Positions 18,494 through 62,422 of a stretch of 64,000 nt of DNA are shown here, in pieces (the first letter of the stretch is position 1; every line of letters begins with the position of its first letter). The DNA is from Candidatus Undinarchaeota archaeon. Its GTDB lineage: Archaea > SpSt-1190 > JASMDC01. Location: positions 1-64,000 of the forward strand of contig CAZFHY010000015.1 of assembly GCA_964519305.1 (NCBI GenBank), given 5' to 3'. Made by a program: the position numbers and the translations under genes. The notes under the pieces are model-generated. The model did not search any database and was not told the DNA's origin. It saw only the letters and a list, made by a program, of their open reading frames with translations.

Positions 18494-18745
18494 ATGACCG
18501 TAGATGTGGGTGCAGCTCTCATCATCGAACGCGGTATCATCGTCCTGGCATTCCCTGCGATCCTCCTACTCCTCCTGGTTCTGCTCGTGCTCACAACGCC
18601 TCCGGCTGACCCATCGAGTGCTGGCTGGACCCAGCAGCAATCCGCCCAGCCCGCGCCCGCTACGCAGGCGCAGTCCTATTCCTATCCGCAGCAGGGCTAC
18701 GGTTATTACTACGGAGGTGGCCAGAACGGCGGATACCAGCGATAA
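18494..18745 (+). CDS. Small single-TM protein with Q/Y/G-rich tail
   Basis: ATG about 25 nt after TATTTAAT; one TM then QQQSAQ...YSYPQQGYGYYYGGGQ. Confidence 0.55.
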   Translation: MTVDVGAALIIERGIIVLAFPAILLLLLVLLVLTTPPADPSSAGWTQQQSAQPAPATQAQSYSYPQQGYGYYYGGGQNGGYQR

Positions 18746-19745
18746 GGACGATTCTGTCACCAGGAAGGATGAAGCTAAGGTCCGGCCTGAAGAAAAAGGG
18801 AAGACTGCGGACAAGGAGAATGTTAAGACAGGTGACATCCCGCCCGCCCCGCGCCACCATGACGAACCGATGACATGGGATGAGCGTCAGAACCGTGCGC
18901 AGAGCTTGCTCATCATCCTATTCCTCATAGTCCAGATATGTGGTGTGGCCATCGCCTACGCGGTGACCCAGAGCCCGGCCATCCAGATGCACCTCGAGGA
19001 GACACGCCCCGCGTTCATCAGCCCTGACAAGGGCCAGGAGAACACAGTGAACATCGTGGCCATCGGTATCGTCGGTACGGTGTTCCTCATCCTCCTGAAG
19101 AAGTACCTGCGTTTCAAGGTCCGTTACGTGGTCATCGTGGCGGTCTTCGGTTCATGTACCTATCTGGCTGACATCCTGGGCTTCGGCGCCCTGGGTTCTG
19201 TGGTGTTCGGTATAGTTGTGACCGTCCTTCGGGAACGTCTGGACAGCGTCCTCATGCTCAACGCCTCGGTGTTCATATCGGTGCTCGGGTTCGGTGCAAT
19301 CTTCGGCCATTGGGTGGTGCCCGAGCATGCAGTGGTCCTCCTTATCGTCCTCTCAATCTATGATATCATCGGAGTGCTCATCACCCAGCACATCACCTAC
19401 CTGTGGTTCGGTGCCTACAAGTTCGAGAAGATTTGGCGTGATGTTCTGGCATTCGTCGTGCATGTTGATGAATCCGAGATAATCCTTGTGGGTGCCGGTG
19501 ATTTCGGGTTCCCAATGCTCTTCACGTTCTCCGTGACCGAGTTCCTCGTCCAGACCCAGGGCAAGGCTTTCGGGCTGGTCGGCGGGTCCATGGTGGCCAT
19601 CAGCGCCACGCTGGGCTTCGCCTTCCTACAGATCTACGCCATGCGCTCCGAACGGAGCAAGGACACAGGGCTCCCGGGGCTCCCGTTCGTAACCGGTGGC
19701 GGTATAGCGGGATGGCTACTGGCCCGGTTCGTGCTCGGCGTGTAG
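18717..19745 (+). CDS. Presenilin/SPP-family intramembrane aspartyl protease (A22)
   Basis: Multi-TM; catalytic YD (LSIYDIIG) and GxGD (VGAGDFGFP); PAL-like LPGLP. Start codon uncertain. Confidence 0.88.
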   Translation: MARTADTSDKDDSVTRKDEAKVRPEEKGKTADKENVKTGDIPPAPRHHDEPMTWDERQNRAQSLLIILFLIVQICGVAIAYAVTQSPAIQMHLEETRPAFISPDKGQENTVNIVAIGIVGTVFLILLKKYLRFKVRYVVIVAVFGSCTYLADILGFGALGSVVFGIVVTVLRERLDSVLMLNASVFISVLGFGAIFGHWVVPEHAVVLLIVLSIYDIIGVLITQHITYLWFGAYKFEKIWRDVLAFVVHVDESEIILVGAGDFGFPMLFTFSVTEFLVQTQGKAFGLVGGSMVAISATLGFAFLQIYAMRSERSKDTGLPGLPFVTGGGIAGWLLARFVLGV

Positions 19746-19800
19746 GACCTTGTCGGCCCAGGCGTTTTCAATATAAAGTTTCACGGTCCGGATGGGCCCG

Positions 19801-20946
19801 ATGGATCAAGGTGCCTATCCACAACCGCAGCATCAAGCTCAACAATTCCCGCCCGTCTCGGCGCATCCACCCGAGGTCTCCGCGGCACCTCCCAAGGAGC
19901 ACGAGCGGAAAGAAGGATTCATCGACAAGCATCTTCCCAAGATCATCGCCGTCCTGCTCTCCATCGCCACTGTGTTCTCCGGTGTCGTGTCCAACCGGTC
20001 CGACCTGTTGGAGGAGCAGGCCAACGAGATGAAGATCGATATAGACACGCTCGAGCGCACTGCTAAGGCCGAGGAGATGGCGGCCCGACAGTACGCCTCG
20101 TCCATCGACAGCTATCAGAACCAGGTAGTGCTCCTCGGTATCGAGAACGAGAAGATCGAGGCGCTCAAAAAAGGGTACGAGACGGATATCGGGGGCATTA
20201 CTACCCTGTACTACGAGGAGTATGAGCAGGTGAACCAGAGCTACGTCGTCAAGCTCGCGAACGAGACAGAAACGCTCGCGAACCTTGAGAAAATGGCCAA
20301 CACCGCCAAGAAGCAGGTCAACACACAGTCGCAGAAGGTCAAGAAGACCGTGGAGGACCTCTTAGGCGTGGGCGGTGGACGGGGGGTCGTCAAGGAGACC
20401 CTGGGCGAACCCGTCACCATGGAGGCCTTCCTCAAGGTGACGCACGAGGAGAACCTCCTCGACGAGTACAAGGACAAGCAGATCGACCTTCGTCAGGAGA
20501 CCATCCGCAAGCGGGAGGAGATCAGGGGGCTCGAGGACGAGCAGCGGTACGCGCTACGTGAGGTCGAACGCGAGCGTGATGCCGAGATAATGGAGAAGCG
20601 CATCCAGCAGAAGCGTCTGGACGATGATATCACCATGAACAACGCCCAGGTCGAGGAGATCAACAAGCTCATCATCAAGTACCAGGGGATGGACGTCGAG
20701 TCCACACAGAAAGCCGAGACTTCCTACGCACAGACCAATGAGAAGGTCCAGGAGGTCGAGGGATTACGGGAGAAGGCCGACCGCCTGATGCGTGTACCCA
20801 TCCTCGTCAACCTTGTCCTGTTCCTGCTCGGTTTCGCGGGCAACTCTGACAAGAAGTTCTTCAAGATAGTGTTCACCATAATCGGCGTTGTCGCGCTGGG
20901 TGTCTCAGGATTCTACTTCCTGCGCATACTGCGGGCACCGATCTGA
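19801..20946 (+). CDS. Membrane protein with long coiled-coil (1 N-terminal TM, 2 C-terminal TM)
   Basis: TATA ATATAAAG about 25 nt upstream; TM, about 270-aa E/K/Q-rich helical region, TM hairpin. Confidence 0.8.
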   Translation: MDQGAYPQPQHQAQQFPPVSAHPPEVSAAPPKEHERKEGFIDKHLPKIIAVLLSIATVFSGVVSNRSDLLEEQANEMKIDIDTLERTAKAEEMAARQYASSIDSYQNQVVLLGIENEKIEALKKGYETDIGGITTLYYEEYEQVNQSYVVKLANETETLANLEKMANTAKKQVNTQSQKVKKTVEDLLGVGGGRGVVKETLGEPVTMEAFLKVTHEENLLDEYKDKQIDLRQETIRKREEIRGLEDEQRYALREVERERDAEIMEKRIQQKRLDDDITMNNAQVEEINKLIIKYQGMDVESTQKAETSYAQTNEKVQEVEGLREKADRLMRVPILVNLVLFLLGFAGNSDKKFFKIVFTIIGVVALGVSGFYFLRILRAPI

Positions 20947-21022
20947 TCGCGGAGGGAACGGCCGGGGCGGATCGCAGAACCCCACCTCTACCTTTATCTC
21001 TCTTTAGGGCCCGTACAGACCC

Positions 21023-21667
21023 GTGGACCTCGCAGCTCTCCCGGCCGCTTTGTACACAATAGTGCTCGCCCTCGCAGCAGGTCAGGACCTGCGCACCGGC
21101 GAGATCGAAGAGCGCGTGCTTCGTGGGCTCGTGCTCGCGGGCGTCGTGGGCGCACTGGTCCACTCCTGGGGCCAGGCCATGGTCCAGGTCCCCGTTCTGG
21201 TGGGTGTCGTTGCGCTCCTTCTAAACCGTGGTGGATGGATGGGCGGGGCTGACCTTACGGCCCTGGTCGCCCTCGCTGTCGCGGTACCGATCCATCCTGT
21301 CCCCGGATACAGCACTCCTCTGCCGTTCCCCGTGAGCGTGTTCATGCTGGCGCTGTTGCTCTCCACGGGATGGCTGGCAGTGCGGGGAGCGATTGGCGTG
21401 ATGCGGTCCGGGCGATGGCTGCGGGCATTCGCCATCACCGCGGGCGTGGCCGTGGTGCTGTGGTCCTCCTACGGATCATGGGACCTGCTGCTGCTGCTGG
21501 ACCTGCTGCTGCTGGCGCTGCTGGTACAGTACCTGGGGCGTCTGGCGGAGCATGGGGGCGCACCCGATCCATGGTCCGAGGTGAGGTTCCTCCCCATGGT
21601 GCTGACATCGCTCCTGCTCCACCTGGTCGGTGGCGACCCGCTCGGTTGGATATTTAAGGTTATTTGA
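21023..21667 (+). CDS. Prepilin/preflagellin peptidase (A24, FlaK/PibD-like)
   Basis: QDLRTGEI first Asp motif, MGGADL second Asp motif, C-terminal FLP; highly hydrophobic. Confidence 0.8.
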   Translation: MDLAALPAALYTIVLALAAGQDLRTGEIEERVLRGLVLAGVVGALVHSWGQAMVQVPVLVGVVALLLNRGGWMGGADLTALVALAVAVPIHPVPGYSTPLPFPVSVFMLALLLSTGWLAVRGAIGVMRSGRWLRAFAITAGVAVVLWSSYGSWDLLLLLDLLLLALLVQYLGRLAEHGGAPDPWSEVRFLPMVLTSLLLHLVGGDPLGWIFKVI

Positions 21668-21681
21668 CCCCCTTCATCCCG

Positions 21682-22812
21682 ATGAGCAAGTTCATGAACT
21701 GCCTGACCATCGGTATCGGGCAGGCAGGGAACCTTGCCGTCAACAACCTCTACGCCTCGGGAGCATCCTCGGACGTGGAGGCGACGGTGAAGAAGGCTAC
21801 CGGCGAGCTCTTCGACTACTTCCGTCCGATCCTCGTCAACACCGACGAGACCGACCTGGCTCAGGCCAAGAACATCAGTAAGAACAACAAGATACACGTC
21901 TCCGCCCACGGTGCCGGAGGCAAGTTCGAGTGGGGAAAGCGCATCGCTAGGGCCCACGAGGACATCCTCTTCCAGCGCATCCGGGCGCTCACCGTTGAGC
22001 AGGGATTCAAACCTAACTTCGTGTTCCTCATCCACTCCCTGGGCGGTGGTACGGGGAGCGGGTTCACACCGATAATCGCCGAGATCGCAGAGCGCATCCG
22101 GTACGAGGCGGGGATGGGGGAGAACGAGTTCTCCATCGTGGACGTACCCTTCCTCCCGTTCCGCTATCAGAAGGGCGATATCGAGGATAACATCATTAAT
22201 TGCCTCAACGAGATGCTACGCAAGGTCGATGGCGTGCTAATGGTCGATCTGGAGCACTTCTACGAGCGCATCCCACCTCAGTACAAGAACGATCCCAAGA
22301 ATCCGCTCACCGTTGACAAGTTGCTCGAGGCCGTGGACATGGACGCCATGATGGCCATCCGCCTGCTCACCGTGTTCGGTTCGGGGACGTCCAGCGTCAT
22401 CGAGGGACAGGTGGCGGACGTGGCCGACATCAAGGCCACCATCTCCTCCGGCGCTTTCTCGGTTATCGGAGTGAACAGGACACCTGTGGACGATAAGGGC
22501 AATCCCTCGGTGGGCATCCCTCACTTGGTGCGCGCCACCATGGTGGAGAAGATGAGCGCCAGCTCGGACTTCAAGAAGGCCAACGGTGCCCTCCTCCTCA
22601 TCAAGGGTCCAAAAGCGCCCTCCATTAAGGACATGCGTACCGCCATCGATATAATCCACCAGGAGATTGGCGAGAAGACCGTTCGCGAGGCCTATGCGAT
22701 CATCCCCAACGCGGATAAGTACGAAGTAGTGCTGATCCTGGCCGGTGTGGCGCTCACCCGTCTTGAGAAGATCCTCGATGGTGTCGAGGAGCGGAAACAG
22801 GGGGGCGGTTGA
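21682..22812 (+). CDS. Divergent tubulin/FtsZ/CetZ-family GTPase
   Basis: IGIGQAGN (T1), VNTD, GAGG (T3), SLGGGTGSG (T4 signature), LPF, VADVADIK (T7-like). Confidence 0.9.
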   Translation: MSKFMNCLTIGIGQAGNLAVNNLYASGASSDVEATVKKATGELFDYFRPILVNTDETDLAQAKNISKNNKIHVSAHGAGGKFEWGKRIARAHEDILFQRIRALTVEQGFKPNFVFLIHSLGGGTGSGFTPIIAEIAERIRYEAGMGENEFSIVDVPFLPFRYQKGDIEDNIINCLNEMLRKVDGVLMVDLEHFYERIPPQYKNDPKNPLTVDKLLEAVDMDAMMAIRLLTVFGSGTSSVIEGQVADVADIKATISSGAFSVIGVNRTPVDDKGNPSVGIPHLVRATMVEKMSASSDFKKANGALLLIKGPKAPSIKDMRTAIDIIHQEIGEKTVREAYAIIPNADKYEVVLILAGVALTRLEKILDGVEERKQGGG

Positions 22813-24090
22813 GTGTTCGACGTGGATCTGGGCGGGATCGATCCGTTGATGCTCTTCCCTGTCATCACGCTTTCACTTGCACTAATAGGTTACGTGCTCA
22901 TCAAGCTGTTCGGTGGGAAGAAGCCGGCGGTAGGTGCGCAGAGCGCTCCGTCAGGTCTCCAGGCATCGGAGCTCATCGACGCCTGGGGCACAACCACGGC
23001 GCCGGATAACGTCTACCAGGCCACCGCTCCTGATGAGATTACGGGGAAGAGGGCGGACTTCGGGGACAAGACCCGCCTCAAGCGCGCCCTGCTAGGACCG
23101 CTGGCCGTGATGGTGTACGACCTGCTCTCAAAGGACTTCCTGAGGAGCTACCACAACAAGGTCGAGGTCGGGTATACCAAGGTGTACCCTGGGGAGAAGG
23201 AGATCGAGGTAGTCCCTCCCCGCTTCATCGGTGAGGACTTCCTGATCTTTGCGCTGGTTGGCGGTATTATCGTGTGCGCCATGGCGCTGGGTGTGGGCTA
23301 CATGTTCCAGGGCGGTATACTGGCCATGGGTTTCGCGGCTATCGTGGGCTTCGGGTTCGGGTTCAGCATGGTGTTCCTCATGCCCCTATTCACCTTCGAG
23401 CGGCGCAAGGACGAGATCGAGGCACACCTCCCTGACGTGCTCGAACAGCTGTCGACCATGTCCGGAATGAAGAACATGGACGAGATAATACGATACCTAG
23501 CCGAGACCCGGCTTGGTGCCGTGTCCGAAGAGTTCGCCATCGGTAACCATATTCTACGCCGCAACCTCAATCTCAACCTCGCACTCGATCGCATCCGCGA
23601 GCGCTCCGAGTCCAAGACCGTAGGGCGTGTGCTCAACCTCCTCAACGAGGGCGCCAGGCGCGGTGTGGACGTCTCTGACGCGGCCAAGAAGATGGCCGAG
23701 AGCATGCGTAACAAGCATATGATCCTGAGGGAGCGCTCGGCATCGCTCTCCCTGCAGCGCTATACCCTGCTATCGGCAGCTGCCTTACTCGTACCCCTTA
23801 TCCTCGGTATCGTATGGGGCATATCCCAGTCCCTCTCAGGATTCGGTAGTGGCGATGCTCTGGCAGGTTCGGGCATCAAGTTCGATCCGAAGAAGGCAGA
23901 GCTGGTGCTCATGACCGTGCGTCAGGTGTTCGGTATCTACGTGGTGATCCATGCTGTCGAGGCGTCGTTCTCAGTGGCCAGACAGGAGGGCGATGTGAAG
24001 CGGGCGGTCATCTATCTGGCGCCATTGGCCGCGATCTCGTACCTTGTGTTCGACAATGTCTGCGACCTGGCAGCGACCATGTTCGTGTGA
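22813..24090 (+). CDS. Type II secretion F / TadC-like pilus platform membrane protein
   Basis: RRKDEIEAHLPDVL...G.....I..LA...LGAVSEEF...AL..I.ER..S...R...LL.EG..RG T2SSF pattern; 3 C-terminal TMs. Confidence 0.85.
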   Translation: MFDVDLGGIDPLMLFPVITLSLALIGYVLIKLFGGKKPAVGAQSAPSGLQASELIDAWGTTTAPDNVYQATAPDEITGKRADFGDKTRLKRALLGPLAVMVYDLLSKDFLRSYHNKVEVGYTKVYPGEKEIEVVPPRFIGEDFLIFALVGGIIVCAMALGVGYMFQGGILAMGFAAIVGFGFGFSMVFLMPLFTFERRKDEIEAHLPDVLEQLSTMSGMKNMDEIIRYLAETRLGAVSEEFAIGNHILRRNLNLNLALDRIRERSESKTVGRVLNLLNEGARRGVDVSDAAKKMAESMRNKHMILRERSASLSLQRYTLLSAAALLVPLILGIVWGISQSLSGFGSGDALAGSGIKFDPKKAELVLMTVRQVFGIYVVIHAVEASFSVARQEGDVKRAVIYLAPLAAISYLVFDNVCDLAATMFV

Positions 24091-24149
24091 ACCCGGGCCC
24101 CGACCCACGGTTTTATATGCTCTAGCCGCCATATCAATCCAAGATAGCG

Positions 24150-25310
24150 ATGGCGCTCTCCACGCTAGCCCTGCTCGTGTTGGCCGTCACGCCAGGCCTC
24201 TATCTCCTCTGGTACTTCTACAAGAAGGACGAGTACGAGCCCGAGCCCATGGACCTTGTCATGAAGACCTTCGTGGCAGGCGCCGTGATGGTGTTCCCAG
24301 CTGCCATGCTCGAGTCATGGCTCATGGTGGGACCATTCCTGGTCACGGAGGGGGCCTCATGGGTGTTCGTGTTCATCGCCTCGTTCTTCATAATCGGACC
24401 TGTGGAGGAGTACTTCAAGCTCCGGGCCGTGATGAGGACCGCTTTCGACTCGCCTGAGTTCAACGAGCCCATGGACGGGGTAGTGTACTGCTCCGCTGCC
24501 TCACTTGGATTCGCCAGCCTTGAGAACATATTCTACGTCGTGGGCACGGGGAGCGTCTGGGTGGGTCTCGCCCGCGCCGTGCTCTCGGTCCCCGGTCACG
24601 CCTTCATGGGCGTTCTCATGGGGTACTGGGTCGGCAAGGCAAAGATGGAGCCCGAGAACAAGGACAAGTACATCACTATAGGTTTCGTGCTCGCGACCGT
24701 GCTCCACGGGATCTACGACTTCTTCATCCTTGCGGAGCCCAATCCGGTGTTCCTCCTGTTCTTCCTCTATATCTTCATGGGGACCCTTGTCAAGAAGGGT
24801 AAGGAGGCCATCGAGGAGCACAGCGGCAACTCGCCCTTCCGGGCAGAGCTCGGGATAACTGAGGAGAAGAAGATACCGAGAGTGACCGACCGACAGGCCA
24901 GGTATCAGACTTGGCAGGAGTCGGTGAAGCCTACTCCCGCACGCAGGGCGGTCCTGCGCCCCACAACGGCCCCCGTTTCCGGCCCTTCCCTCGATGAGTG
25001 GGGGGACCCACAGTTCTGCACGTCCTGTGGTAAGAACATCGAAGGCGATCGCGAGTACGTGGAGTGTGACGAGTGCGGGGCAGCAGTGTGCGAGCAATGC
25101 GCCATCCTCGCCGATGACCGGGACCTCTGCAAGGCCTGCGCGAGCGAGCCCGCGAACTGCGGCCAGTGCCGACGCGACATCCGTAACGACCGCGAGTACG
25201 CGGTCTGCGACTGGTGCTCAAAACCTCTGTGTGCGAAATGCGCCGTTTCGGATGGCCACACTGACCTCTGTCGTGACTGTTCCGGCTCCCTCGGATTCGT
25301 AGTAGGATAG
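24150..25310 (+). CDS. prsW: PrsW-family intramembrane protease fused to two 8-Cys Zn-finger repeats
   Basis: DEYEPEP, EEYFK, GFASLEN, HAFM and HGIYD motifs; two C-terminal CxxC-x12-CxxC-x4-CxxC-x9-CxxC units. Confidence 0.88.
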   Translation: MALSTLALLVLAVTPGLYLLWYFYKKDEYEPEPMDLVMKTFVAGAVMVFPAAMLESWLMVGPFLVTEGASWVFVFIASFFIIGPVEEYFKLRAVMRTAFDSPEFNEPMDGVVYCSAASLGFASLENIFYVVGTGSVWVGLARAVLSVPGHAFMGVLMGYWVGKAKMEPENKDKYITIGFVLATVLHGIYDFFILAEPNPVFLLFFLYIFMGTLVKKGKEAIEEHSGNSPFRAELGITEEKKIPRVTDRQARYQTWQESVKPTPARRAVLRPTTAPVSGPSLDEWGDPQFCTSCGKNIEGDREYVECDECGAAVCEQCAILADDRDLCKACASEPANCGQCRRDIRNDREYAVCDWCSKPLCAKCAVSDGHTDLCRDCSGSLGFVVG

Positions 25311-25427
25311 CTTTCGGTTTTTTAGGGCGGCTCCCCGACCATCTTGTTCCCCTTTAAGAGCGCCCGGAGACAGAATAATAGTATCGTTTGGGGAATTATC
25401 CCAGAGAGAAAAAACAGAAAGGTGACA

Positions 25428-25808
25428 ATGATGGAAATACAAGGGAACCAGGTACCGGAACTGGCGACCGTGTTCCCCGTTGAAGCCAGTGAGCTTACGG
25501 CTGCCACGTTGCCAATCCTTGATAGCGAGCGTGACCAATACCACATCCAGCATGAACGGAACTGTTCTGTTTGCGGATGTCCATTGGAAGAAGAATGGGA
25601 ATATCTCCCGTGCGACGCCTGCGGCGCCATTGTGTGCAGCGAGTGCATCTCAAAGGCAGACGGCCACCGCATATGCCCTGTGTGCACGAGCGAGCTCGAA
25701 CCGTGGACAGAGCTAGGTTCCGGCATCACGGGTGTCGAGGCCGACGCCACTTGGGAGGACGAACTGGCGGGATGTAATTTGGAAGGGCTCCCCAGAGCCT
25801 TCACATAG
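25428..25808 (+). CDS. Small stand-alone 8-Cys Zn-finger protein
   Basis: GGTGA SD; CSVC..CDAC..CSEC..CPVC with the same spacing as the PrsW tail repeats. Confidence 0.7.
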   Translation: MMEIQGNQVPELATVFPVEASELTAATLPILDSERDQYHIQHERNCSVCGCPLEEEWEYLPCDACGAIVCSECISKADGHRICPVCTSELEPWTELGSGITGVEADATWEDELAGCNLEGLPRAFT

Positions 25809-29780: not shown

Positions 29781-31571
29781 TTAGCACTTGTCGTCGTGCG
29801 CTGCCACGGGAACGTAGGTCTCGCCGATCCGTTCCATGAGGAGGGGCTGGACGATGATATCGCGGTCTGGGTTCTCCCCCGGAACTATCTCTTCCAAAGA
29901 GGCGGCAACCTGGATCATGTGCGTGGGTGAGCCCGCTTCATCCCGCGATGGTCGGGCTATGCGCAGGTAGCGGCCCGGTTCCGCCCTTCTGATGGAGTAC
30001 CGGCCTTCCTCGTCGGCGATGGCGTGGAGCAGTGGTCCCGGTCCCAGGGGCGCGAACAGCACCTCTACGTAGCGGTCCGGTGTGCCCTTTACATATCCAA
30101 GGGGCTCACGGTCACGCTCCTCCACCCGCCGTTCTGTTGTGCACAGGACGGTCCGATTGAGGTACACGCGTCCGGCCATGCTACCGAATGACTGCATGGT
30201 CACAGTCTCGCTAAGCGTCTCGTGGATGTTCCGCTCGAACGTTGTCCGCGCCAGTCCCGTTGGCTCTGTCGAGCCGATAGTGATGGTGTGAACGCCGCAG
30301 GGTACTCCGTCCTTGGTAAGCCGCCCTTCAGAATATGGATAGGAGCAGGCGTCCACGTTCACGCTACCTGCTTGCGAGCCCTGGAGCGTGATATCGAGAG
30401 CGCAGGGTCCGGCGCAGGGATCGTCGATCTCGGTGGGAAGACCATGGTCCTCCTTTATCGTGACGTTCTCCCCTACCAGGAGGGGCCGCATGTAGAGCAC
30501 CAGCTCAAGAGGTTGTGATAGGTCCGTGCCCGATGCACCCACCACTTGCGTGGCCTTGTTCAGGTCCCGGAGCACAAGACGGACAGGGAAATCGACGTTA
30601 TAGGTGACGGTGTAACTGCCCATACACTGATCGCTGGCCATATCCGTCAGTGGCATGGCGGATGGGACGAGATAGACCTTCTTTTTACTCTCATAGTCAT
30701 CCACTCCGACGTTTGCGATCATTGTGAAGTTAACGGCCAGTTCCGTCAGCGAGTGGTCCCACTCCAGCGATGCATCGGGGAGCCCTTCGTTGGCCAGCGC
30801 CATGGCACGGGCCACGGCCAGGCGTACGTTGTCGCGCACAGGCCCGATCAGCTGGTCGCGCTCTCGGAGCACGGTCCGGGAACTGCAGGGTACGGTCCCG
30901 GACACCATCCCGGGCGGTGACGGTACACGCTCGTCGTTGATTAGCCCGGTGAGCAGAGTGCCCTCCATTGTCCTGTTCTGGTCATAGGCGTGGAGGAACG
31001 TGCGGGCGGTATTGATTAGCAGCCCCAGCCTTAGGGAGTATGCGTGGGATACCGACGCCGTCTCACGCGCCACGGCTTCCTTCCCGGCGACCGTGTAGGG
31101 CATGTCCAGCTCGACCTCGAGCTCCTCCGAAGCGATACGTGTAGTTACAGTGGGCGCCCCCACTTCAACACCGATACCAAGGTCCATCGTGGCCAAGGCG
31201 TCGCCTACCAGCGCTTCCACCCGTCGTGCGAGCATGGCTTCGACGGCTTCCACGGTCGGTAGATTGACCACGGCTCCACGATAGAATAGATAGGGCACAC
31301 CGTTCACGCTCTGACGCGGCGCCATCCCTGTGGGGAATCCACCATGGGCCGCGATCTCGAGCGCCGACTCGGCGACCGCCTCGTCCAGCACGTTGGCCAC
31401 CATGGCCTGGACATCGATGAGCGTGTCGCGAGTCACTTCGGTCTCCTGACGCTCGACCCTTGTGTCCCGGTCGACCTCCGTCCCACGCGACATCATGTAC
31501 ATGGTCATGATGATGACCAGCGCCACCGCTGCTAGGCCGATCATCATCATCTGCCCCCGTCGTCGTCTCAT
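29781..31571 (-). CDS. Large pilin-like protein with class III signal peptide
   Basis: MRRRRGQ-MMMIGLAAVALVII N-terminus; C-terminal beta-sandwich-like region. Confidence 0.7.
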   Translation of the reverse strand: MRRRRGQMMMIGLAAVALVIIMTMYMMSRGTEVDRDTRVERQETEVTRDTLIDVQAMVANVLDEAVAESALEIAAHGGFPTGMAPRQSVNGVPYLFYRGAVVNLPTVEAVEAMLARRVEALVGDALATMDLGIGVEVGAPTVTTRIASEELEVELDMPYTVAGKEAVARETASVSHAYSLRLGLLINTARTFLHAYDQNRTMEGTLLTGLINDERVPSPPGMVSGTVPCSSRTVLRERDQLIGPVRDNVRLAVARAMALANEGLPDASLEWDHSLTELAVNFTMIANVGVDDYESKKKVYLVPSAMPLTDMASDQCMGSYTVTYNVDFPVRLVLRDLNKATQVVGASGTDLSQPLELVLYMRPLLVGENVTIKEDHGLPTEIDDPCAGPCALDITLQGSQAGSVNVDACSYPYSEGRLTKDGVPCGVHTITIGSTEPTGLARTTFERNIHETLSETVTMQSFGSMAGRVYLNRTVLCTTERRVEERDREPLGYVKGTPDRYVEVLFAPLGPGPLLHAIADEEGRYSIRRAEPGRYLRIARPSRDEAGSPTHMIQVAASLEEIVPGENPDRDIIVQPLLMERIGETYVPVAAHDDKC

Positions 31572-34315
31572 GGGCCTCCCCCCTGCTCGTTGCTCCAGTT
31601 GCCAGGATTCCCTTCCGTCATCACGGGGACGCTGTCGGAGAGGGCGCCTCCCGGGCCGTCCATGGACACAACGAGCTCGATGGAGCTCCCTTCGGTCGCC
31701 GGACCGGGCGGCAGACGCGCCCGCGAGAGGTGGAGCTTCACACCCTCATCGGTGCTGACGATGTGAGACAGTGCAGCGGTGATATCGGTACCGCCCATGG
31801 TCACGGTGAAGTCGTCCTGGGTGACCATCGCCTGTGACGTAATTGAGAGGTGGATGTCCATGGAGAACCCGACGGACATCAGGAGGTGGAACAGTGGTCG
31901 GTCTGCGCTCCCAGGGCTGATATGGGATATGTGCATGGCTGCGGGCGCCTCGTCCACAACGTCGAGGAGGACGCGAGCGGACCCCCTGCGCCCCAGCGAG
32001 ATGATCTCGAGCAGCATATAGTTCGAGCGCGGGGGCGAGGTGCTCTGGAAGGTGGCCACCACGCTCCAGGTACCCGCGTCCGGATTGTACGTGGCCGCCA
32101 CGGCGTCCGGCCGCAGCTCCTCTAGGGAGAGGATGAGGTCCTCGGGCTTGAGGTCGCCCACAGGCTCGCCAGCGCTGTTGCGGACCGCGAGCTCCAAACG
32201 GAGGGCCACACCCAGATTGAGGTCGGCGGCATCGATGCGGCCGGGCGAGGCGCGCAGCACCTCGATGGTGAGCTCCCGTGAGTCCGATGGGTAGAGCACG
32301 GACACGGACCGTCGCACGGCTGCCATATTATCGCGATGGTAGACCTCCATCACCGCATCGTACGTGCCCGGTGGCAGACGGCCTTCCACGGGTAGCGATA
32401 GCTGCCACGTGGTACCGGAAACGTCCACCGTTGCGTTCTGTGGTGCCAGGAAGCCCACCCGTCCCCGTGCGCCGACATCGACAGCGGCGGAGGTGTCCAG
32501 AGGGTCCCCTTCACGACGCAGGATGCCGCTCCACACGATATTGGCACCTTCAAGCACGGACGAAGCGTCGATCTCGCGGGGCTCAACCTCGCGGGCGTCG
32601 AACTCCAGCACTGTCGCGATGCATCCCTCGGGAGTGCAGGTCTGACCGGGATCACAAGGGGAGACTGGGCCTTTCTCGTCAAGGCAAACGCAGTAGCCGT
32701 CGCACACCTCGCCGGGGCCGATGCAGCCGAACACCTCGCTCCCACGTCGTGCCGTGCACGAGCCAGGGACCTGGACTATGATATACGGCGAACGGGTAGG
32801 TTCCGGTCGGCACCCGTCGGGTGTGCACTGGTCCGTGGGTTGGCAGGCGTCAAGGGGCTCGCCCCCTTCATCGAAGCACAGACAAATTGGGATGGACACC
32901 GACGAGGGTGAGCACTGCTGGCCGTTCCCTATGCACGGTAATGGTTCGCTATCCACAGAGAAAGAGCCGCGGGGGCACAATGACTCCATGGGCGAACGGA
33001 TGATGGGCTGCCATTCCCGGACCTCTATGGCCCGTGAAGCCATCCCTGTCAGCCTCCCGTGAGCGTACACCCGGGTCTGGACCACGTAGGTGCCCGCTTC
33101 GATCGTCTCGTCGAGTTTGAGCTCTCTTTCCCCGCACCCGTCCTCCCGGAGCACCTCAGCAAGCTCGTCGTCCAGTATGACGGTCTCGCATGCCTCACCG
33201 CTGCTCTGGATATTGACCACGAGCTCCTCACCCGGACGGTAGTCCTCCCTGTCGGTCACGATATCGGCAGGCTCGGCCGCCAGCCCTTCGAGCGTGACGG
33301 GCAACGCTACTCCGGCGCTCCCCTCAGAGGTCTTCGCGGTGACCTGAAGGAGGTACCGACCCGGATTCCACGCCGTTGAGGTCCCAAGGGCGATGCGCGT
33401 GCAGTTCTCGAACACCGCATGTGCCATCTCGCCGGTCCCCGGCAGCACCAGCGACACCGCGCACATCTCGAGTTCGTCATCCGACGCGACCACGGGCATC
33501 ACCGGTTCGCCCAGACGCACTACTAGCGCGTCAAGGGTGACGTTGAATGGGAACTGGGGCTCACCGACCCTGATGTCCGTCCGGGCAACCCCCGCGTCAC
33601 CGCCACCGAGCACGACCATCGCGACAGTGTAGGTTCCGGGCCTCAGCATAGGGGGGACGCCCAGGAAGAACGGTTCGCATCCCGGTGCGTCGGCGATGAC
33701 CAGCGGATCGTCGTCGCGGAAGAGGGCGCCGATGCACAGTGTGCCCGCTGCGGCGGGGAAGGCCACGGCGTCGCCGGCAACGAATGGACCTTCGGGCAGG
33801 ACTATGTCCGTGTTGGTGGTATCCTTTCGCAGCTTGAAACTGCTCGAGACCGGTGCGTCACGGAGGTCGGTAACGACCGTCTCGTGGGTCGGATAGCGGA
33901 GGAGCAGTTCCCTGCGAACGGCCGTGATGGCGGGCGAGAGGACGTACTGGAGCGGCTTGTGCTCGAGATTGAACGACACAGATACCTTACTGTCGCCGAG
34001 CTCAAGATCGTCGATGGAGAGCCCGCTCGGGGATACGACCGTGAAAACGACCTGACGCCGGGGCTCGTCGATGGCCGCAGTGCACGTGAGGGCCGAGGAG
34101 AGGACGGTGCATCGCCTCTCAAGCACGTCCTGCTGAGGGAGAGGACCCTCGTCACTGAACGAGTACGTGAGCGTGACGGTCGTGAGGGCCAGCGATGCCA
34201 CGTCCACTTCCTCCACGAGCGAGGGTATGGTGGCGCTTATGGCCGGTACCAGGAGGAGCCAGATGCAGAGCAAGAGCACGGGTACGCGCATCGTCAGGGT
34301 CGGTTCAGTGTCCAT
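31568..34315 (-). CDS. Secreted multidomain protein (Ig-like and Cys-rich repeats)
   Basis: GGAGGGAG SD before ATG 34315; signal peptide; TDREDY.PGE Ig-like motif; two CIG.G..C...C.C.DE.G...C.P...CTP.GC repeats. Confidence 0.75.
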   Translation of the reverse strand: MDTEPTLTMRVPVLLLCIWLLLVPAISATIPSLVEEVDVASLALTTVTLTYSFSDEGPLPQQDVLERRCTVLSSALTCTAAIDEPRRQVVFTVVSPSGLSIDDLELGDSKVSVSFNLEHKPLQYVLSPAITAVRRELLLRYPTHETVVTDLRDAPVSSSFKLRKDTTNTDIVLPEGPFVAGDAVAFPAAAGTLCIGALFRDDDPLVIADAPGCEPFFLGVPPMLRPGTYTVAMVVLGGGDAGVARTDIRVGEPQFPFNVTLDALVVRLGEPVMPVVASDDELEMCAVSLVLPGTGEMAHAVFENCTRIALGTSTAWNPGRYLLQVTAKTSEGSAGVALPVTLEGLAAEPADIVTDREDYRPGEELVVNIQSSGEACETVILDDELAEVLREDGCGERELKLDETIEAGTYVVQTRVYAHGRLTGMASRAIEVREWQPIIRSPMESLCPRGSFSVDSEPLPCIGNGQQCSPSSVSIPICLCFDEGGEPLDACQPTDQCTPDGCRPEPTRSPYIIVQVPGSCTARRGSEVFGCIGPGEVCDGYCVCLDEKGPVSPCDPGQTCTPEGCIATVLEFDAREVEPREIDASSVLEGANIVWSGILRREGDPLDTSAAVDVGARGRVGFLAPQNATVDVSGTTWQLSLPVEGRLPPGTYDAVMEVYHRDNMAAVRRSVSVLYPSDSRELTIEVLRASPGRIDAADLNLGVALRLELAVRNSAGEPVGDLKPEDLILSLEELRPDAVAATYNPDAGTWSVVATFQSTSPPRSNYMLLEIISLGRRGSARVLLDVVDEAPAAMHISHISPGSADRPLFHLLMSVGFSMDIHLSITSQAMVTQDDFTVTMGGTDITAALSHIVSTDEGVKLHLSRARLPPGPATEGSSIELVVSMDGPGGALSDSVPVMTEGNPGNWSNEQGGGP

Positions 34316-34329
34316 CAGCTCTCCCTCCT

Positions 34330-37300
34330 TTATGTGATAGCGCACCCGCATGCGCAGTTCTCCTGTACCAGTTCGCAGGTTCGTGGGCTGAGACGGAACC
34401 GACATGTGGGAAGGCACTCCTCGCATACGACCTCACGGGTGCAGTTGCTGGTAGTGATGACCGTGGCGATGCGTCCCTCCTCCCCATCGAGGCTGATCAG
34501 GCCGACCTCGAGCTCGGCGAACGGATGGGCCGCGGGATCGACCAGTCTGTCGAGCCATGGACCGGCCCCGGGAGGAGAGGCCGATACCAGGAGCCTGTAG
34601 CGCTCACCAGCTACGGGGGTGAACGGAGGTGTCTCGAAGAGGCTGACCGCTTTGGGATCGAGGGTCAGATCCGGTTCCTGGACCTTCTCATCGAGGAAGG
34701 TCCCACTGTCGTCCACGGGCCGGAGGAGCAGCTCGCCTGTGAATGCCACGGGCTCGGGATTGCCCAGTTCGACATGACCCTTCACCGGTTCGGGTCGGTA
34801 GAGCCGGCTCGTGCGCACGCCCCGGGCGTCGGTGAAGTAGGCGTCTCTGAGAAGCAGTGATGGCCGGGCCACCTCCAGATAAGCGTGAGGGTAAAGGGAG
34901 GCCAGATGCGCCAGGTCCTCGCGGCACCATGATGTGAGGGAGCGGCCTGCGCACTCATTGAGCACCTCACCCTGCGATTGGAAGGTCGTTGTGAGGACGG
35001 AACCGTTAATGTCATGGAGCTCGGCACGCAGCGAGAGCACTTGTCCCGCCATCTCGTTCGTGATGTTGATTACGGGGGTCCTTATTGTATGGGCGCCGGG
35101 CTGGTCGATGGTCACTTCAATCAGCGAACCGTTCACAGGACCGTCGTTGTGCATTACGGTGAGATTGCCTGTGAGCGGGAACACGGTGGTCACGAGCGTC
35201 ACCTCACCCAAGGCGGTGGTCCCCGGGTAGGAGCGCGTGGTCCGCTCGCCCTGAGGTGTGACGAAGTGGACGTTGACGACCGTGAGGTTGTCCATGATGA
35301 ACACACCGTGGATGTCCCCCCTGTCGTAACCGAGCAGTTCTCCGTTGAACCGGACATCTGCAAAGGGGGCGAGAGTCAGGTTAGTGAAGCGAGCGTCCAC
35401 ACGGAACGGCTGGACTGGGATCACCCGCTCGGCGTCGGGTCGTAGAGAGCCGAGCCTGAGACCGGTGGCGACAGAGTGCTTGTACTCGTCACACGAGCAC
35501 GGGCACGTTTCACCGCGAACGCATGGAGGACATGTACAGTTGACCTGGACTTGGAACGCGAGAGACACGTTCCCGGAAACGGTCAGGAGCCCCTGGTTGC
35601 GCACACGGACGCTCGCGCGCAGCATCTCTCCCACGTACATGGCGCGCACCGGTTCCTCGCCGCGTAGGAAGGCCACCTCGACCTCGAGGTCGGGAGCGAG
35701 GGCGTGGCACATGCGCTGACACACCTCGGTGGAGTTCACTGCAAGACAACGCCCCATACAGTCCTTGATCGGTTCCTCGAGCTCCTCCTCCTCGGGGTTC
35801 TCTTCTTCCTCCTCCCCCTCATCCTCGATGGGAGCGTTCCTGCACTTGTCCACGCACCGCGCCTGGAGAGTACCGTTAGCGGGGAACTCCTCGAGACAGG
35901 CGATCTCACAGGTGAGCCCCTGGTCGATGCACTCCTGGGTTGCGGGCAGCTCCTCGAAGCCGTTGAAGCAGCACCATCCCGTGTCCGAGGAGGCGGTCTG
36001 GCACCGCTCGAAGTACGGTGCTGGGATGCCCTTGGCGTCGGGGACGCACTCATCGGTCCCGTTGGCCATCATGCTCGTGTAGTTCAGTGCCATGGTGACG
36101 TTGAACGTCCGGGCACAGCAGGCGAGAACAAGACGTCCGCTCTCCCGGGGCTCTGCTTCGCACGGGACATTGGTGGTGTGCCATGTGAGACCCTCCTCGC
36201 ACACGCACACGCCAGCCTGGGCATGGCAGTGGGACGCGGATGCACCGTGACAACGTCGGCACACCGAGGCACAGTCCATTCCCGGAGTAGTGTAGGTCAG
36301 GCAGGTACCGTCCTTTATGAACAGGCGTTCGGGATCCACGGTGGCCAGGACGTCCACGACCTCCTTCGCCGCGTTCTGGTAGACGTCGAGATTGGCGACC
36401 TCGATGTCCAATGGCAGGGCCGTTGCACGGCATGCCCCGCACTCGCCAGGCGGGCATGCATCGGGATATTCCTCTGGTGTCACCACGCGTCGCTGCGTCT
36501 CGTCGGTGTCGTTCCCCTCGGTACCGACTGGCGGTTTTCGCACGGCAGCGAGGAGCACGTACTTCCAGTCGCCAGCGTCTATATGGTTGGTAGTGACGTC
36601 GGTCACCTGTCCGTCCCAGGCATAGAACATCACCGTCGTCGGCTTGACTTGTCGGTTGACGAACACGACTATGTCCCCCTCGCCGTTCCCGTCGAAGTCC
36701 CCCCCGAGCATGAAGAACGGTACCTTGGTCTTGCACTGGTCCTCCAGGGAGCCGCAGTCGGCGTCCAGTGTGTCGGCGTTTCGGCGCTCTACCGTGCCGT
36801 CCCACCTGTAGAAGTTGACCTTGCCCTTGGCGGTGCGCACGGCCAACTCGGACTTGCCGTCACCATCGAAGTCGCCGGCGGTAACCACAGGGAAGTACTT
36901 GTCGATGAAATAGTAAGGCCAGGTGCGCTTGTGCTCTTTGAGCTCCCACTTCTTCCCGTCAGCACCCTTGGATGTGACCTTTCCGTTCCATTCGTAGAAC
37001 AGGAGCTTGTCACGCTTGTACACAACTGCAAGCTCGTCGCGACCGTCACCGTCGAAGTCCCCGGCGGTCGTCCCGAATAAGATGTCCCCCTCTTTCTCGA
37101 TCTGAAGGAAAGTGGCGTCCTTGACCTTGTCCCCTCCAGTCCATCGATAGAAGAATACGTGGTCGTCGGTGTGGTAGTTGATGGCCAGCTCGTCCGTACC
37201 GTCGCCGTCGAAGTCGCCAGCGGCCGTCCAGCGGATGTAGGGGTCCCACCCATCCGGCATACCCTCCAAGTACTCGCCAGAGCGCTCGTGGAAAGTGCCG

Positions 37301-53114: not shown

Positions 53115-56100
53115 TCACCCCTCACGTCCATCGACGGCAACGGTGCGCCGGCGAGTCCTACGCGCTAGGAACAGGCCTGCCAGGGCCAGCAGGAGCGCGA
53201 TGTCCACTGCGCCAACGCCGGGGGCCGTCGCCATGAAAGCACTACCGCTGGCGTACACGACCCGCACATAGAACTGCTTCTCGTTGAGCCGCTCTAGCGA
53301 GTCCGCGTCCACGACGTAGATCTCGATGAGACCTGCGGCGGTGAGCTTGTAGGGATTGATCTCCACCGGGATGGTCTTCGACTCACCTGGGAATAGGGTG
53401 AACGCCTCCTCATCGAAGGTGGACCACATCTCCTCCTTGTGGAGCTTGAGCACTAGGTTCATCGGCTGTGTCCAGTAATTGGTGACGTGAGCGCCGAGCA
53501 GGAACGTCTCGCCCACGAAGGTCGACATTGTGTTCTCGACGATATCGGCCTTACCGGACATCTTGCGTACCTCGAGCTTGACGAACTTCTCGAAGGAGAA
53601 CACTGTCTGGTAATGGGCGTCGGTGTAGAGCATGCAGATGCCCGTCTCGGGCGCAGGGGTACCCTCGTACTCGCACTGGTCCGGAGCCGCCTCCTGGGTG
53701 CAGAAGTGGCACATGGGCAGAGTGGCGGTGATGGTCATCACCGGTCGCGGCTCGTTGGTGACCAGACCTGAGACGTCGCACAGGAACACACCGGAGCCCT
53801 GGTGCGTGCAGGTCTTCTCGATGTTCTTGTAGGATAGGGTGGCCTGGCACATGTCGCACCGCTCCGGCGCGCCACCGTGCTGCTGGAGATAGGAGGACGT
53901 TATCACGTGGAACGCGATCTTGACGTCCTTCTTGCCACCGGGCAGCGTCTGCTTGCGGACCTTGATGTCCTTGACCGAGATGGCGGGGATGGGGCCGTCC
54001 CTGGGGTGGCACAGCTCGCGTTCGTAGCCGAGCGTCGATGAGAGCATCTGGCACCCGGTCTTGGCACAGGTGTAGTAGCCGCCGTCGATGAGGTCGATCT
54101 GACCCTCGGTCTCGTTGAACAGGGCCTTCTCGTGGTAGTAGCAGTTGAGGGTGGTGACGTTCACGGTGCCCGGGTACGGGCAGTTGCCCTTGAACACGTC
54201 GTCGGACCAGTCGAACCCGTCGTAGGCGTCGTCCCCGTCGTCCTTACAGATGTCCCAGTACTTCTTCTCGTCCTTGTCGAAGGCATAGTAGCATGTATGT
54301 GTGGCGTTGTCCAGGCACCAGCCCTCCGTGGCGACATCGATGCTGATGGGCTTTTCGTCCTTCAGCTCATTGTTGAGGCGGAAGCGCGTGTTGTCGGCGG
54401 AGTTCGCCTTATCCAGCTCGAGCCAGGTACATCGCTGACGGTGACTGGCTTCCTGCGGTTCCACTGGAGCCTGGTGGCAGCCATTGGAGTCGCAGTCAAC
54501 GGCCTTGGACCAGTCGGCGCCGGTCTCCGGGTCCTTCTCGGACCAGAAGTAGCATGTGATCTGGTAGTTCTGCTTTCCGTAGATCTCGTTGTAGCTGTGA
54601 CCCACGATCTCCGTGTCCCCGGCACCGTCGCAGTCCCTGAATTCCTGACTGTCCACACCGAAGAAGTCGTTGTAGTTCGCCGAATCGACACCATTGTAGA
54701 GCTTATTGTCCACCTGGCTCGTCTTGTTGACACCCTTCTCGCAGTAGTGGCAGTAATCACGGCTGTCCGAGTAGTAGTAGAAGTTGTCGTTGTCGCCGTC
54801 GTCACCACAGCACGGCGCCTCGGCATTGGCCCCAGCTTCGTCGTGGAGGCCGCCGTCGCCAAGGTCAGGGTGGTCATTTGGCTCGAACCAAGCGTGCTTG
54901 TTGTACTTGTCCACGTCATAGCTGCGGGCACGCCAGGATAGGCAGTGGCAGGCATTGGCGCTGACATCGCCGCCCTTGTTACCGCCTGTTTCGGCCGAAT
55001 CGTAGCAGGTACCGTTGGACACGCAGTCAGTCTCTCTCGGGCAGCAGGAGAGGTAGTAGTTGTACGTCTTACCGCTGCTGAAGTGGGGTGCGTCCGATGC
55101 TTGCCATGAGCGCACACCTATGTTGTCGCCCGGTACGCGGTGGAGCGAGCCGCCGCCCGTACCTTCCGAGCGGAGGGACCACTCGCTGGCATCATCGCCG
55201 CAGCAGGTGTCCTTCGAATCCGAGCCGCCGTTGTTCACGGAGGTGCCGTACTTGACGTCCCACCAGACGCCCTGGTCCTTGTTCTGGGAACCGGTGGTCG
55301 TGTCAGAGAAGCACCGGGTGTCGCAGTACCGCCAGGCGATGGACGCGTCGTCGCCGCTGCTCTGGCCGGCCACGTCCCGGTTCTTGTCGTTGAGGTTGTC
55401 GAAGTCGACGTAGTACATCTGTGAGTATGCTTTCTCGTTGGAGTTGGGAAGTCCCGTTGGATCGTTGCTCGTTGGCGTGTCGTCGAAGTACCGGTTAGTA
55501 TTGCTCTTGCCTGAGTAGCTGGTGCCGCCCATGGCACGGTTCTCGCCGTAGTACTGCCACAACATCTTGTACTGGTAGCTACCTTCCAGGGTGCACATCT
55601 CGAGCGGGTCGGTCGTGCGGGTGATCGGGTCGTGGTTGGTCGCTGTGGTCGTGACGGTAGTCACCGATATCTTATTGTCCGTAGAGCCGTCGTTGAGCGG
55701 GTAGGTGAAGGTGTAGCTGCACGTCTCCTTGCCGTACTGGGTTGTGTCGATGCGCCAGGTCGTGGGTCCATTGCCGTCGTTGACGCAGGTCATGGCCACG
55801 TTATTGCGGTATTCGGTCCCGTCGGGTTTCTTGAACCCGTAGGTCCCGTCCATGTCGTAGCCGCAGTAGTAGTGGCTCTGGCACGTACCGGAGCGGCAGC
55901 CCTTGCGGTCACCGGTCTTTTCGTCGTCGCAGGAGTTCGGGCAGTTAGCGACCTTGCTGGCCGCGACCCCATTTGCGTCATTGTCACAGCAGTAGGTGAC
56001 ATAGTTGGCCACACCAGGCACGCGATAATCGAACTTGACGTAGCCGTAATACCAACCGCTGACGGTGCAGGTCGTGTACTTCTTCGTGCACTGTGCGTAG

Positions 56101-62369: not shown

Positions 62370-62422
62370 GATACTATGTACGTAGCGCTCGTGGGATATA
62401 AACCTGCCCCGTGGACGGGGTC

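Follow-up and report, generated by a model that had tools for sequence, protein, structure and literature searches.

CetZ is, to our knowledge, the least understood branch of the tubulin superfamily, and the adjacency of its genes to pilus loci, noted since 2007-2016, has never been explained. In most Thermococci, an FtsZ-family GTPase (arCOG02202) is reported from clade 1 type IV pilus loci, and in Halobacteria from subclade 4F loci (Makarova 2016, PMC4858521). Brown and Duggin (2023, PMC9856176) identify the pilus-locus GTPase as CetZ2 in Haloferacales and Halobacteriales; in every member of the Thermococcales that they analysed, it is the only CetZ. The latter authors propose CetZs as possible scaffolds of type IV systems, and their article mentions non-canonical tubulin-superfamily proteins of DPANN in a supplementary table only. 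CetZ-like groups in unrelated genomic contexts are described from Halobacterota, Asgardarchaeota, Altiarchaeota and Chloroflexota (Santana-Molina 2023, PMC9871819). From the Undinarchaeota literature, CetZ appears in PMC11291902 only in the reference list. For Thermococcales and Halobacteria, the literature already contains both the CetZ-pilus adjacency and the idea of a scaffold, and the locus analysed here, in an Undinarchaeota genome, extends this known kind of link. It occupies 21023..24090 of the window, that is, of the first 64 kb of a contig of 107,154 nucleotides (nt) (contig 15, C15) from a genome of 3.63 Mb in 42 contigs (G000), and reading of the sequence gives three open reading frames (ORFs) on the same strand, with lengths in amino acids (aa):

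21023..21667, plus strand: A24-family prepilin-peptidase-like intramembrane aspartyl protease, 214 aa, GTG start, TGA at 21665-21667
21682..22812, plus strand: CetZ-like tubulin-superfamily GTPase, 376 aa, ATG at 21682, TGA at 22810-22812
22813..24090, plus strand: single-domain T2SSF/TadC-like polytopic membrane protein, 425 aa, GTG start

The reading we favour, to which we give a probability of about 0.55, is that the tubulin is a functional polymerising GTPase of a deep, hitherto unsampled CetZ-like clade and the co-translated, dedicated cytoplasmic partner of the TadC-like platform protein, the two being the core of a second, dispersed machine. We argue for a dedicated tubulin-platform partnership because their junction is conserved, because they occur as a paralogous pair, and because both are under equally strong constraint (ratios of nonsynonymous to synonymous substitution, dN/dS, of 0.057 and 0.051 against the sister species). 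Like the clade 1 loci of Thermococci and the pilB2-pilC2 (4F) loci of Halobacteria, described as combining a CetZ-type gene with platform, ATPase and class III signal-peptide genes and credited with the same scaffold proposal, the locus brings together a CetZ-like and a platform gene. It differs from them in the deeper clade of its tubulin, in its phylum, and in having two paralogous tubulin-platform pairs in one genome; here, moreover, the tubulin gene abuts the platform gene (0 nt) in the place usually taken by the ATPase gene, and the window has neither an ATPase gene nor a pilin set.

The first-pass annotation of the window had placed the tubulin gene 14 nt after the A24 gene and 0 nt before the T2SSF/TadC gene, and the sequence bears out both the ORFs and their spacing: the A24-tubulin gap is 14 nt, and the tubulin stop (TGA 22810-22812) is followed directly by the GTG at 22813. 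An in-frame TTG at 21664 is an alternative tubulin start upstream of the ATG at 21682; we favour the ATG because the homologues P0002 and P0003 begin with the same MSKFMNC. The stretch GGGGGCGGT lies 5' of the GTG of the T2SSF-like gene that adjoins the tubulin stop, and the tubulin and TadC-like platform genes are probably translationally coupled. Compared with the sister species, all four genes examined (tubulin, T2SSF, A24 and PrsW, a protease gene following T2SSF) are under purifying selection at synonymous divergence (dS) of 0.35-0.46, dN/dS being 0.22 for A24 and 0.19 for PrsW.

The junction between the tubulin and TadC-like platform genes is conserved. It is again 0 nt, with PrsW next, in the congener G006 and the sister-species contigs L007, L009, L015 and L016, and so persists at dS ~0.4. 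In more distant relatives, the tubulin P0002 (72% identity) and the T2SSF P0178 (59%) are both recorded on one Logan contig only, 11,677 nt long in either case, and P0155 (of the P0003 cluster) and the T2SSF P0179 (57%) likewise on one of 3,352 nt; the adjacency is thereby probably kept in two 72%-identical relatives.

A paralogous pair occurs on contig 1 (C1) of the same genome, which has six tubulin-superfamily genes in all: three of FtsZ type, the window gene, the contig-1 paralogue and a divergent gene on contig 8. The contig-1 paralogue (422 aa, 28-30% identity to the window tubulin with E 1e-47, CetZ_C at 45 bits) is the last gene of a four-gene minus-strand operon, divergent from a three-gene plus-strand operon, and this arrangement is also present in G006:

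Contig 1, plus strand: operon of a T2SSE ATPase that carries a 4Fe-4S domain at its N-terminus, T2SSF-a (425 aa) and T2SSF-b (300 aa)
L012:13462-15678 (G000:C1:44374-46677): Fer4-T2SSE ATPase of this operon
C1:46678-47967: T2SSF-a, Pfam 37.9 bits, following the T2SSE ATPase

The window T2SSF-like protein is 33-36% identical to T2SSF-a (E 5e-49), its only paralogue in the genome, and the tubulin and T2SSF-a are the sole genes common to the two loci. Genome-wide BLAST gave the contig-1 ATPase one paralogue at C1:136435-139011 (L019:8436-10892), 45.5% identical over 685 aa and of the same Fer4 plus T2SSE architecture, and BLAST of the contig-1 parts against all ORFs of the genome gave T2SSF-b one at C1:585561-586661 (29.6% identity); each of these orphans is isolated among housekeeping genes. 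With a single specific counterpart elsewhere for every contig-1 part, a second, dispersed type IV filament-like system probably exists, part of which lies in the window and of which only the tubulin and T2SSF-a have stayed together. The earlier observation that the window has no PilB/FlaI ATPase was correct, and extends to the whole of contig 15, all seven T2SSE matches of the genome (six above cut-off) being on other contigs; nor does contig 15 hold a second T2SSF gene beside the window one, among eight T2SSF matches in the genome. To take the missing ATPase as the sign of an ATPase-free module does not hold up, given the orphan one-to-one paralogue of the contig-1 ATPase at C1:136435-139011.

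Several further observations concern the contig-1 and contig-8 tubulin loci. The two paralogous T2SSE ATPases (45.5% identical) both carry the N-terminal 4Fe-4S ferredoxin-type domain. Directly upstream of the contig-1 tubulin paralogue lies P0224 (L012:9339-10310, minus strand, on G000:C1), a 323-aa protein with no Pfam match whose N-terminus, NLIGLGTFGATW, resembles a tubulin T1 loop and which lacks a GGGTGSG T4 loop; its alignment to tubulin has an hhalign probability of 3% (E 0.014), and it may be a degenerate tubulin-fold partner. The third divergent tubulin (L014:5503-6786, plus strand, on G000:C8), of 427 aa and with a branch length of 3.2, matches Pfam Tubulin over profile positions 111-186 only, and adjoins a divergently oriented 620-aa gene (L014:3564-5426, minus strand) with ubiquitin, Rad60-SLD and OTU1_UBXL Pfam matches.

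The duplication bears on whether the two neighbours are coupled at all. The tubulin could have a general cell-shape role like that of CetZ1, its adjacency to T2SSF reflecting co-regulation or a frozen accident without physical coupling. Published CetZ-pilus adjacencies are likewise unexplained and may, as discussed in PMC9856176, reflect mobile pilus regulons, the contig-1 tubulin and the T2SSF genes belong to separate operons, and the region is prone to rearrangement, as a 4.8-kb indel in the sister species indicates. Yet the 0-nt junction has been kept at dS ~0.4, the pairing has probably been kept at 72% and 59% identity, the pair has remained within ~6 kb since a duplication that left ~30% identity, and no other genes than the tubulin and T2SSF are common to the two loci, so that we judge mere neighbourhood distinctly unlikely.

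The window tubulin matches Pfam Tubulin (PF00091) at 82.8 bits (cut-off 33) and CetZ_C (PF21011) at 27.4 bits (cut-off 21.6); the Pfam scan gave no match to FtsZ_C (PF12327), and TIGR00065 (ftsZ) scored 63.4 bits, far under its cut-off of 295.2. Its motifs are GIGQAGN (T1), GGGTGSG (T4) and VADVAD (T7), with T1 and T4 kept within its clade, the T7 residue D246 conserved in at least 90% of 57 alignment rows, and D249 invariant within the window clade; in this superfamily, an acidic T7 residue supplies the missing part of the neighbouring subunit's active site, which GTP hydrolysis coupled to polymerisation requires. The T1 and T4 motifs that had been noted, GQAG and GGGTGSG, are indeed present, but the DVAD of the T7 loop, which had been called FtsZ-like, is not diagnostic: at the second acidic T7 position, the 27 core CetZ-like rows divide into 16 with D, 10 with E and one with A. 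By sequence, the closest PDB entries are the Methanosaeta thermophila CetZ (3zid, E 3.4e-13) and then Haloferax volcanii CetZ1 (4b46, 2.5e-10), with weaker matches to archaeal FtsZ (2e-9) and alpha-tubulin (8e-5). An AlphaFold model built on 5 sequences had low confidence (pLDDT 54) and gave way to an AF2 model from the 57-sequence alignment (pLDDT 91.9, pTM 0.92), for which the best Foldseek matches were 4b46 (CetZ1) and 3zid (CetZ), with 4b45 (CetZ2) at rank 5 and FtsZ close behind. Foldseek probability was 1.00 to CetZ, FtsZ, tubulin and TubZ chains alike, as expected of a two-domain tubulin fold, and TM scores by target were 0.67 for TubZ and tubulin versus 0.77-0.84 for the better matches. 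Hydropathy indicates a soluble protein with no hydrophobic segment and a short C-terminus.

The protein is thus like the CetZ family (4B46, 4B45, 3ZID) in its GTPase domain followed by CetZ_C, its GxGQxG T1 loop and its acidic T7 pair, and its best sequence and structure matches lie there. It is unlike that family in its weak CetZ_C, in having only 19-27% identity to any core or CetZ member, and in a T1 loop that ends in N, as in FtsZ and tubulin, and not in G-K/R. A Pfam scan of 50 of the 150 listed profile matches found 33 with CetZ_C, 11 with FtsZ_C and 6 with neither; CetZ_C scores in the other 32 positives, which include the contig-1 paralogue clade, were 43-231 bits (72-231 in the 28 rows of the core clade) against 27 for the window tubulin.

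In the careful tree (IQ-TREE, LG+C20+F+G4 with posterior mean site frequencies, 52 rows, 399 columns), the FtsZ-type rows, including the three FtsZ genes of this genome, split from the CetZ side at 100/100, and the window tubulin falls on the CetZ side. The window clade (the window tubulin, P0002 and P0003) joins the paralogue clade at 98/94, and together they are sister to all other 35 CetZ-side rows (94/81), outside a 28-row core supported at 88/89 that holds the named CetZs (Thermococci, Halogeometricum, Haloplanus, Nitrososphaerales, Bathyarchaeia). Two quick trees placed the window clade identically. Left out of the tree were four fused matches longer than 520 aa, one 285-aa fragment and the listed matches without a Pfam scan; the long-branched third divergent tubulin of this genome was excluded from the careful tree only. 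If the boundary of canonical CetZ is drawn by the Thermococcales CetZs (as in Brown and Duggin 2023), the window clade falls outside it. The phylogenetic check proposed for the locus hence puts the tubulin neither inside the FtsZ clade nor inside the core CetZ clade, and the suggestion of a possible undescribed tubulin clade gains from its position in a tiny, lineage-restricted clade outside both. We accordingly class the protein, from its sequence, as no FtsZ but as CetZ-like and outside canonical CetZ, its position there being unsettled.

The clade is also rare. A word-indexed search of 5.8 billion proteins with the tubulin as query returned 5 matches (one at 97% identity, P0002 and P0003 at 72%, and two marginal), and when 1.84 billion cluster representatives were searched exhaustively with a profile, 2,446 matched at E≤0.001 and just two at E≤1e-30, one from the window clade and one from the paralogue clade, the next match scoring 114 bits. 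Named members of the neighbouring clusters are from Halogeometricum and Haloplanus (UniProt 'Tubulin-like protein CetZ'), a Thermococci metagenome-assembled genome, Nitrososphaerales and Bathyarchaeia. Among 17 species genomes of the phylum-level group, the tubulin gene occurs in this genome and its congener G006 only; a scan of a genome collection found one 96%-identical locus only, and a scan of metagenomes yielded two copies at 96% identity together with two of the paralogue. The window protein is a real, constrained and probably GTPase-competent CetZ-like protein.

Its partner is a more distant relative of known platform proteins. The T2SSF Pfam score was 19.4-21.8 bits in two scans, under the cut-off of 25.2, and NCBIfam matches to ArlJ and UpsF were weak; membership of T2SSF is supported indirectly, by the 33% identity (E 5e-49) to the Pfam-positive contig-1 T2SSF, and the homologues P0180 and P0181 carry PF00482. 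The predicted topology is an N-terminal transmembrane helix, a loop of ~105 aa (34-140), two transmembrane helices, a helical domain (~197-315) and three further transmembrane helices. Like TadB/TadC, PilC, ArlJ and UpsF, the protein has one T2SSF helical domain followed by transmembrane helices and an E...LPD motif at the start of that domain (E203 and LPD206-208, invariant in 7 aligned homologues). In tad loci, tadB and tadC follow the ATPase gene, and contig 1 likewise has two single-domain T2SSF genes after its ATPase gene. The window protein differs from the TadB/TadC type in scoring under the Pfam cut-off, in its extra N-terminal transmembrane helix and clade-specific 105-aa cytoplasmic insert, the latter kept in P0178 and P0179 and absent from the contig-1 paralogue, and in being encoded with neither a partner subunit nor an ATPase nearby.

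Such departures raise the question of whether the T2SSF-like protein no longer takes part in pilus biogenesis and acts only as the membrane tether of a CetZ-like filament, in a cell-shape or envelope module without pilus output. The sub-threshold T2SSF score and the clade-specific insert would fit this, as would a contig without an ATPase or second platform gene; the tubulin, with no hydrophobic segment and a short C-terminus, would need an anchor, and the flanking genes on both sides encode intramembrane proteases and not pilus components. The core with E203 and LPD206-208 is, however, invariant in all 7 aligned homologues and under strong constraint, the orphan ATPase and T2SSF-b paralogues would complete a machine, and on contig 1 the pair has its ancestral setting in a full locus of ATPase and platform genes. 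We therefore consider a role purely as membrane anchor unlikely.

Returning to the dedicated partnership that we favour, we can outline how it might work. By analogy with CetZ1 and the archaellum in Haloferax, GTP-dependent CetZ-like filaments would form at the cytoplasmic face of the membrane, where they would dock on, or be anchored by, cytoplasmic parts of the platform protein, and the docked filaments would then place, cluster or stabilise a type IV filament-like assembly machine. This machine would handle the abundant ~600-aa proteins with class III signals after their cleavage by an A24 peptidase, for which the neighbouring A24 gene would be a plausible, loosely linked supplier; its ATPase and second platform subunit would presumably be the orphan paralogues on contig 1. 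In functional terms only, the pair may be compared to FtsZ with FtsA, ZipA or SepF, as a soluble tubulin-fold polymer with the gene of a candidate membrane anchor adjacent; the window protein differs from these in not being an FtsZ, the genome having three separate FtsZ genes, and the T2SSF protein is not a known tubulin partner. A closer coupling can also be imagined, in which the GTPase is a stoichiometric, platform-bound subunit of the machine, forming a third cytoplasmic class beside the ATPase and the regulators, and in which its assembly gates or helps to drive export of the ~600-aa proteins, so that it has taken the position and possibly the role of the ATPase; this we regard as improbable, somewhat more so than mere neighbourhood.

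Various points weigh against a dedicated partnership within a type IV filament-like machine. The tree was built without eukaryotic tubulin, artubulin, OdinTubulin, TubZ, named FtsZ1/FtsZ2 or curated Thermococcales references, and its focal branches, at 1.0 and 1.7 changes per column, are long. For the 72%-identical relatives, adjacency is read from the matching sizes of their contigs. The contig-1 tubulin lies ~6 kb from T2SSF-a in a divergent operon, and direct adjacency is therefore confined to the window lineage; the contig-1 locus, furthermore, has no A24 gene, and in the sister species the A24 gene is ~4.8 kb 5' of the tubulin gene, with three opposite-strand genes between them. With a T2SSF score under the Pfam cut-off and no neighbouring ATPase or second platform gene, pilus function could have been lost. 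Finally, proximity of class III genes to both tubulin loci is weak evidence, given 21 other copies of the family in the genome and a contig-1 copy that ranks 9th among the matches.

The A24 gene is hence the looser member of the trio. The first-pass annotation had proposed a peptidase-tubulin-TadC module; the tubulin-TadC link is kept in the sister species, but the A24 link is absent both there and at the contig-1 locus. The indel in the sister species (L016:2190-6938) holds genes for proteins of 179, 920 and 457 aa, none with a Pfam match, the 920-aa one being polytopic with 8 matches in G000 (best 40% identity) and none at this window position; with 4.8 kb in between, the peptidase and tubulin genes are not consistently neighbours even inside one genus. 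The A24 protein itself matches Peptidase_A24 (PF01478) at 32.2 bits (cut-off 26.5), had no NCBIfam model match and no PDB sequence match, and is one of four A24 matches in the genome. Its acidic motifs QDLRTGEI (D22) and GGAD (D77), whose aspartates we take to be the catalytic pair of the family, are both present and are kept in P0190, the sole distant homologue (60% identity), which lies on a 1,334-nt contig that says nothing on linkage. In its size of 214 aa, its 5-6 hydrophobic segments and both acidic motifs it is like the PibD/FlaK-type archaeal prepilin peptidases, a five-transmembrane form described in PMC4858521; it differs from them in lacking an NCBIfam or PDB sequence match, and for any given substrate it is one of four A24 candidates in the genome.

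The locus is flanked on both sides by genes of the same strand, and a possible promoter precedes it:

18870..19745, plus strand: presenilin/signal-peptide-peptidase (SPP)-like intramembrane protease, two genes 5' of A24, Pfam SPP 41.1 bits
19792..20946, plus strand: coiled-coil membrane protein of 384 aa, directly 5' of A24, with one N-terminal and two C-terminal hydrophobic segments
20991..20998, plus strand: TATA-like CCTTTATC, ~25-32 nt 5' of the A24 GTG, read from the sequence
24150..25310, plus strand: intramembrane protease of the PrsW family whose C-terminal half is Cys-rich and zinc-ribbon-like, 59 nt 3' of the T2SSF-like gene, Pfam PrsW 116 bits

The start codon of the SPP-like gene is ambiguous (18504 or 18870), and its product matches the NCBIfam archaeal presenilin model at 43 bits, under the cut-off of 125. 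The coiled-coil protein has no Pfam match; its gene is single-copy in the genome and is 88% identical to its counterparts in L016 and L007. The PrsW protein matches NCBIfam PrsW at 171.7 bits, under the cut-off of 225, and the next ORF, 25344-25808, is 32% identical to its Cys-rich C-terminal half. The TATA-like element is a possible promoter of a leaderless transcript starting from the A24 gene; a promoter/terminator scan of the locus gave chance-level counts with a sigma-70 model, which is irrelevant to an archaeal host. Within 18504-25310 (plus strand), three distinct intramembrane proteases (presenilin/SPP-like, A24 and PrsW) occur in 7 kb, interspersed with the coiled-coil, tubulin and T2SSF-like genes.

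This grouping allows the unit to be drawn differently, as the whole row of SPP-like, coiled-coil, A24, tubulin, T2SSF-like and PrsW genes, encoding a filament-organised station for membrane-protein processing or quality control in which A24 would cleave class III signals. The six same-strand genes are spaced by 46, 76, 14, 0 and 59 nt and include the three intramembrane proteases, their order (SPP, coiled-coil, A24, then tubulin, T2SSF, PrsW) is kept in L016, and at least 17 of the 600-aa proteins encoded in the genome have class III signals in need of processing. In the sister species, however, three genes of the opposite strand interrupt the row, the contig-1 locus has no paralogue of SPP, the coiled-coil gene, A24 or PrsW, and the constraint on A24 and PrsW (0.19-0.22) is weaker than on the tubulin-T2SSF pair. 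We hold a processing station to be the least likely of the readings weighed here.

Candidate substrates for a dedicated tubulin-platform machine are encoded further along the window, where, as the first-pass annotation had pointed out, there are proteins bearing signal peptides of class III; they lie at two places on the minus strand:

29781..31571, minus strand: 596-aa protein with class III-type signal peptide, starting MRRRRGQMMMIGLAAVALVII, with MRRRRGQ and then a hydrophobic stretch
31568..34426, minus strand: 952-aa secreted partner, directly upstream of the class III gene, with a signal-peptide-like N-terminus
62423-63004, minus strand: small class III protein of 193 aa, starting MMLTTSRRGQFFIVSSVLVIM, signal peptide RRGQFFIVSSVLVIM, with the look of a conventional small pilin

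The 596-aa gene lies 5.7 kb from the locus and has no Pfam match; its family has 21 further copies in the genome, and R-[GA]-Q followed by a hydrophobic stretch is found at the start of 16 of the 17 near-full-length copies examined. The 952-aa family also has 21 further copies, mostly adjoining copies of the 600-aa family, and Pfam matches that are sub-threshold only. At 29781-39027 (minus strand) and at ~21 other loci, among them C7:78573-86817, C9:17875-22487 and C1:34130-38850, a gene for a ~950-aa secreted protein is followed by one for a ~600-aa class III protein, often with giant FG-GAP-type proteins. The cassette represents, on the evidence of these sequences, putative surface proteins linked to type IV filaments that have undergone a large expansion specific to this lineage, and the ~600-aa proteins are plausible candidates both for A24 peptidase substrates and for cargo of the type IV filament-like machine. 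A co-duplication of the 596-aa and 952-aa genes with the tubulin and T2SSF, considered from their matches to L012, was dropped, since both belong to 22-copy families; their best matches are on contig 7 (61% and 55%), and the contig-1 copies rank 9th and 6th. By a rough estimate, ~22 class III loci in 3.6 Mb give a ~7% chance of finding one within 6 kb of a given point. The small class III gene is the middle one of three small consecutive genes (61464-63567, minus strand), none with a Pfam match, upstream of a 2,738-aa ORF at 53115-61331.

The genomes G000 and G006 measure 3.6-3.8 Mb, compared with 0.6-1.2 Mb for 15 other species genomes of the phylum-level group, and the lineage is either an outlier in size and surface-protein content or misplaced.

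Altogether, the locus offers the tightest genetic coupling of a CetZ-like tubulin to a type IV pilus system that we found, with a 0-nt gap, a pair that has outlasted a duplication leaving ~30% identity, and equal constraint on both members. It names a specific candidate binding partner for the tubulin, the TadC-like protein, and so turns a vague association into a direct question about two proteins. It also extends the CetZ side of the tubulin tree by a lineage that branches deeply and is useful for rooting the evolution of CetZ, in a host whose genome (3.6 Mb) is atypically large for a phylum otherwise of 0.6-1.2 Mb.

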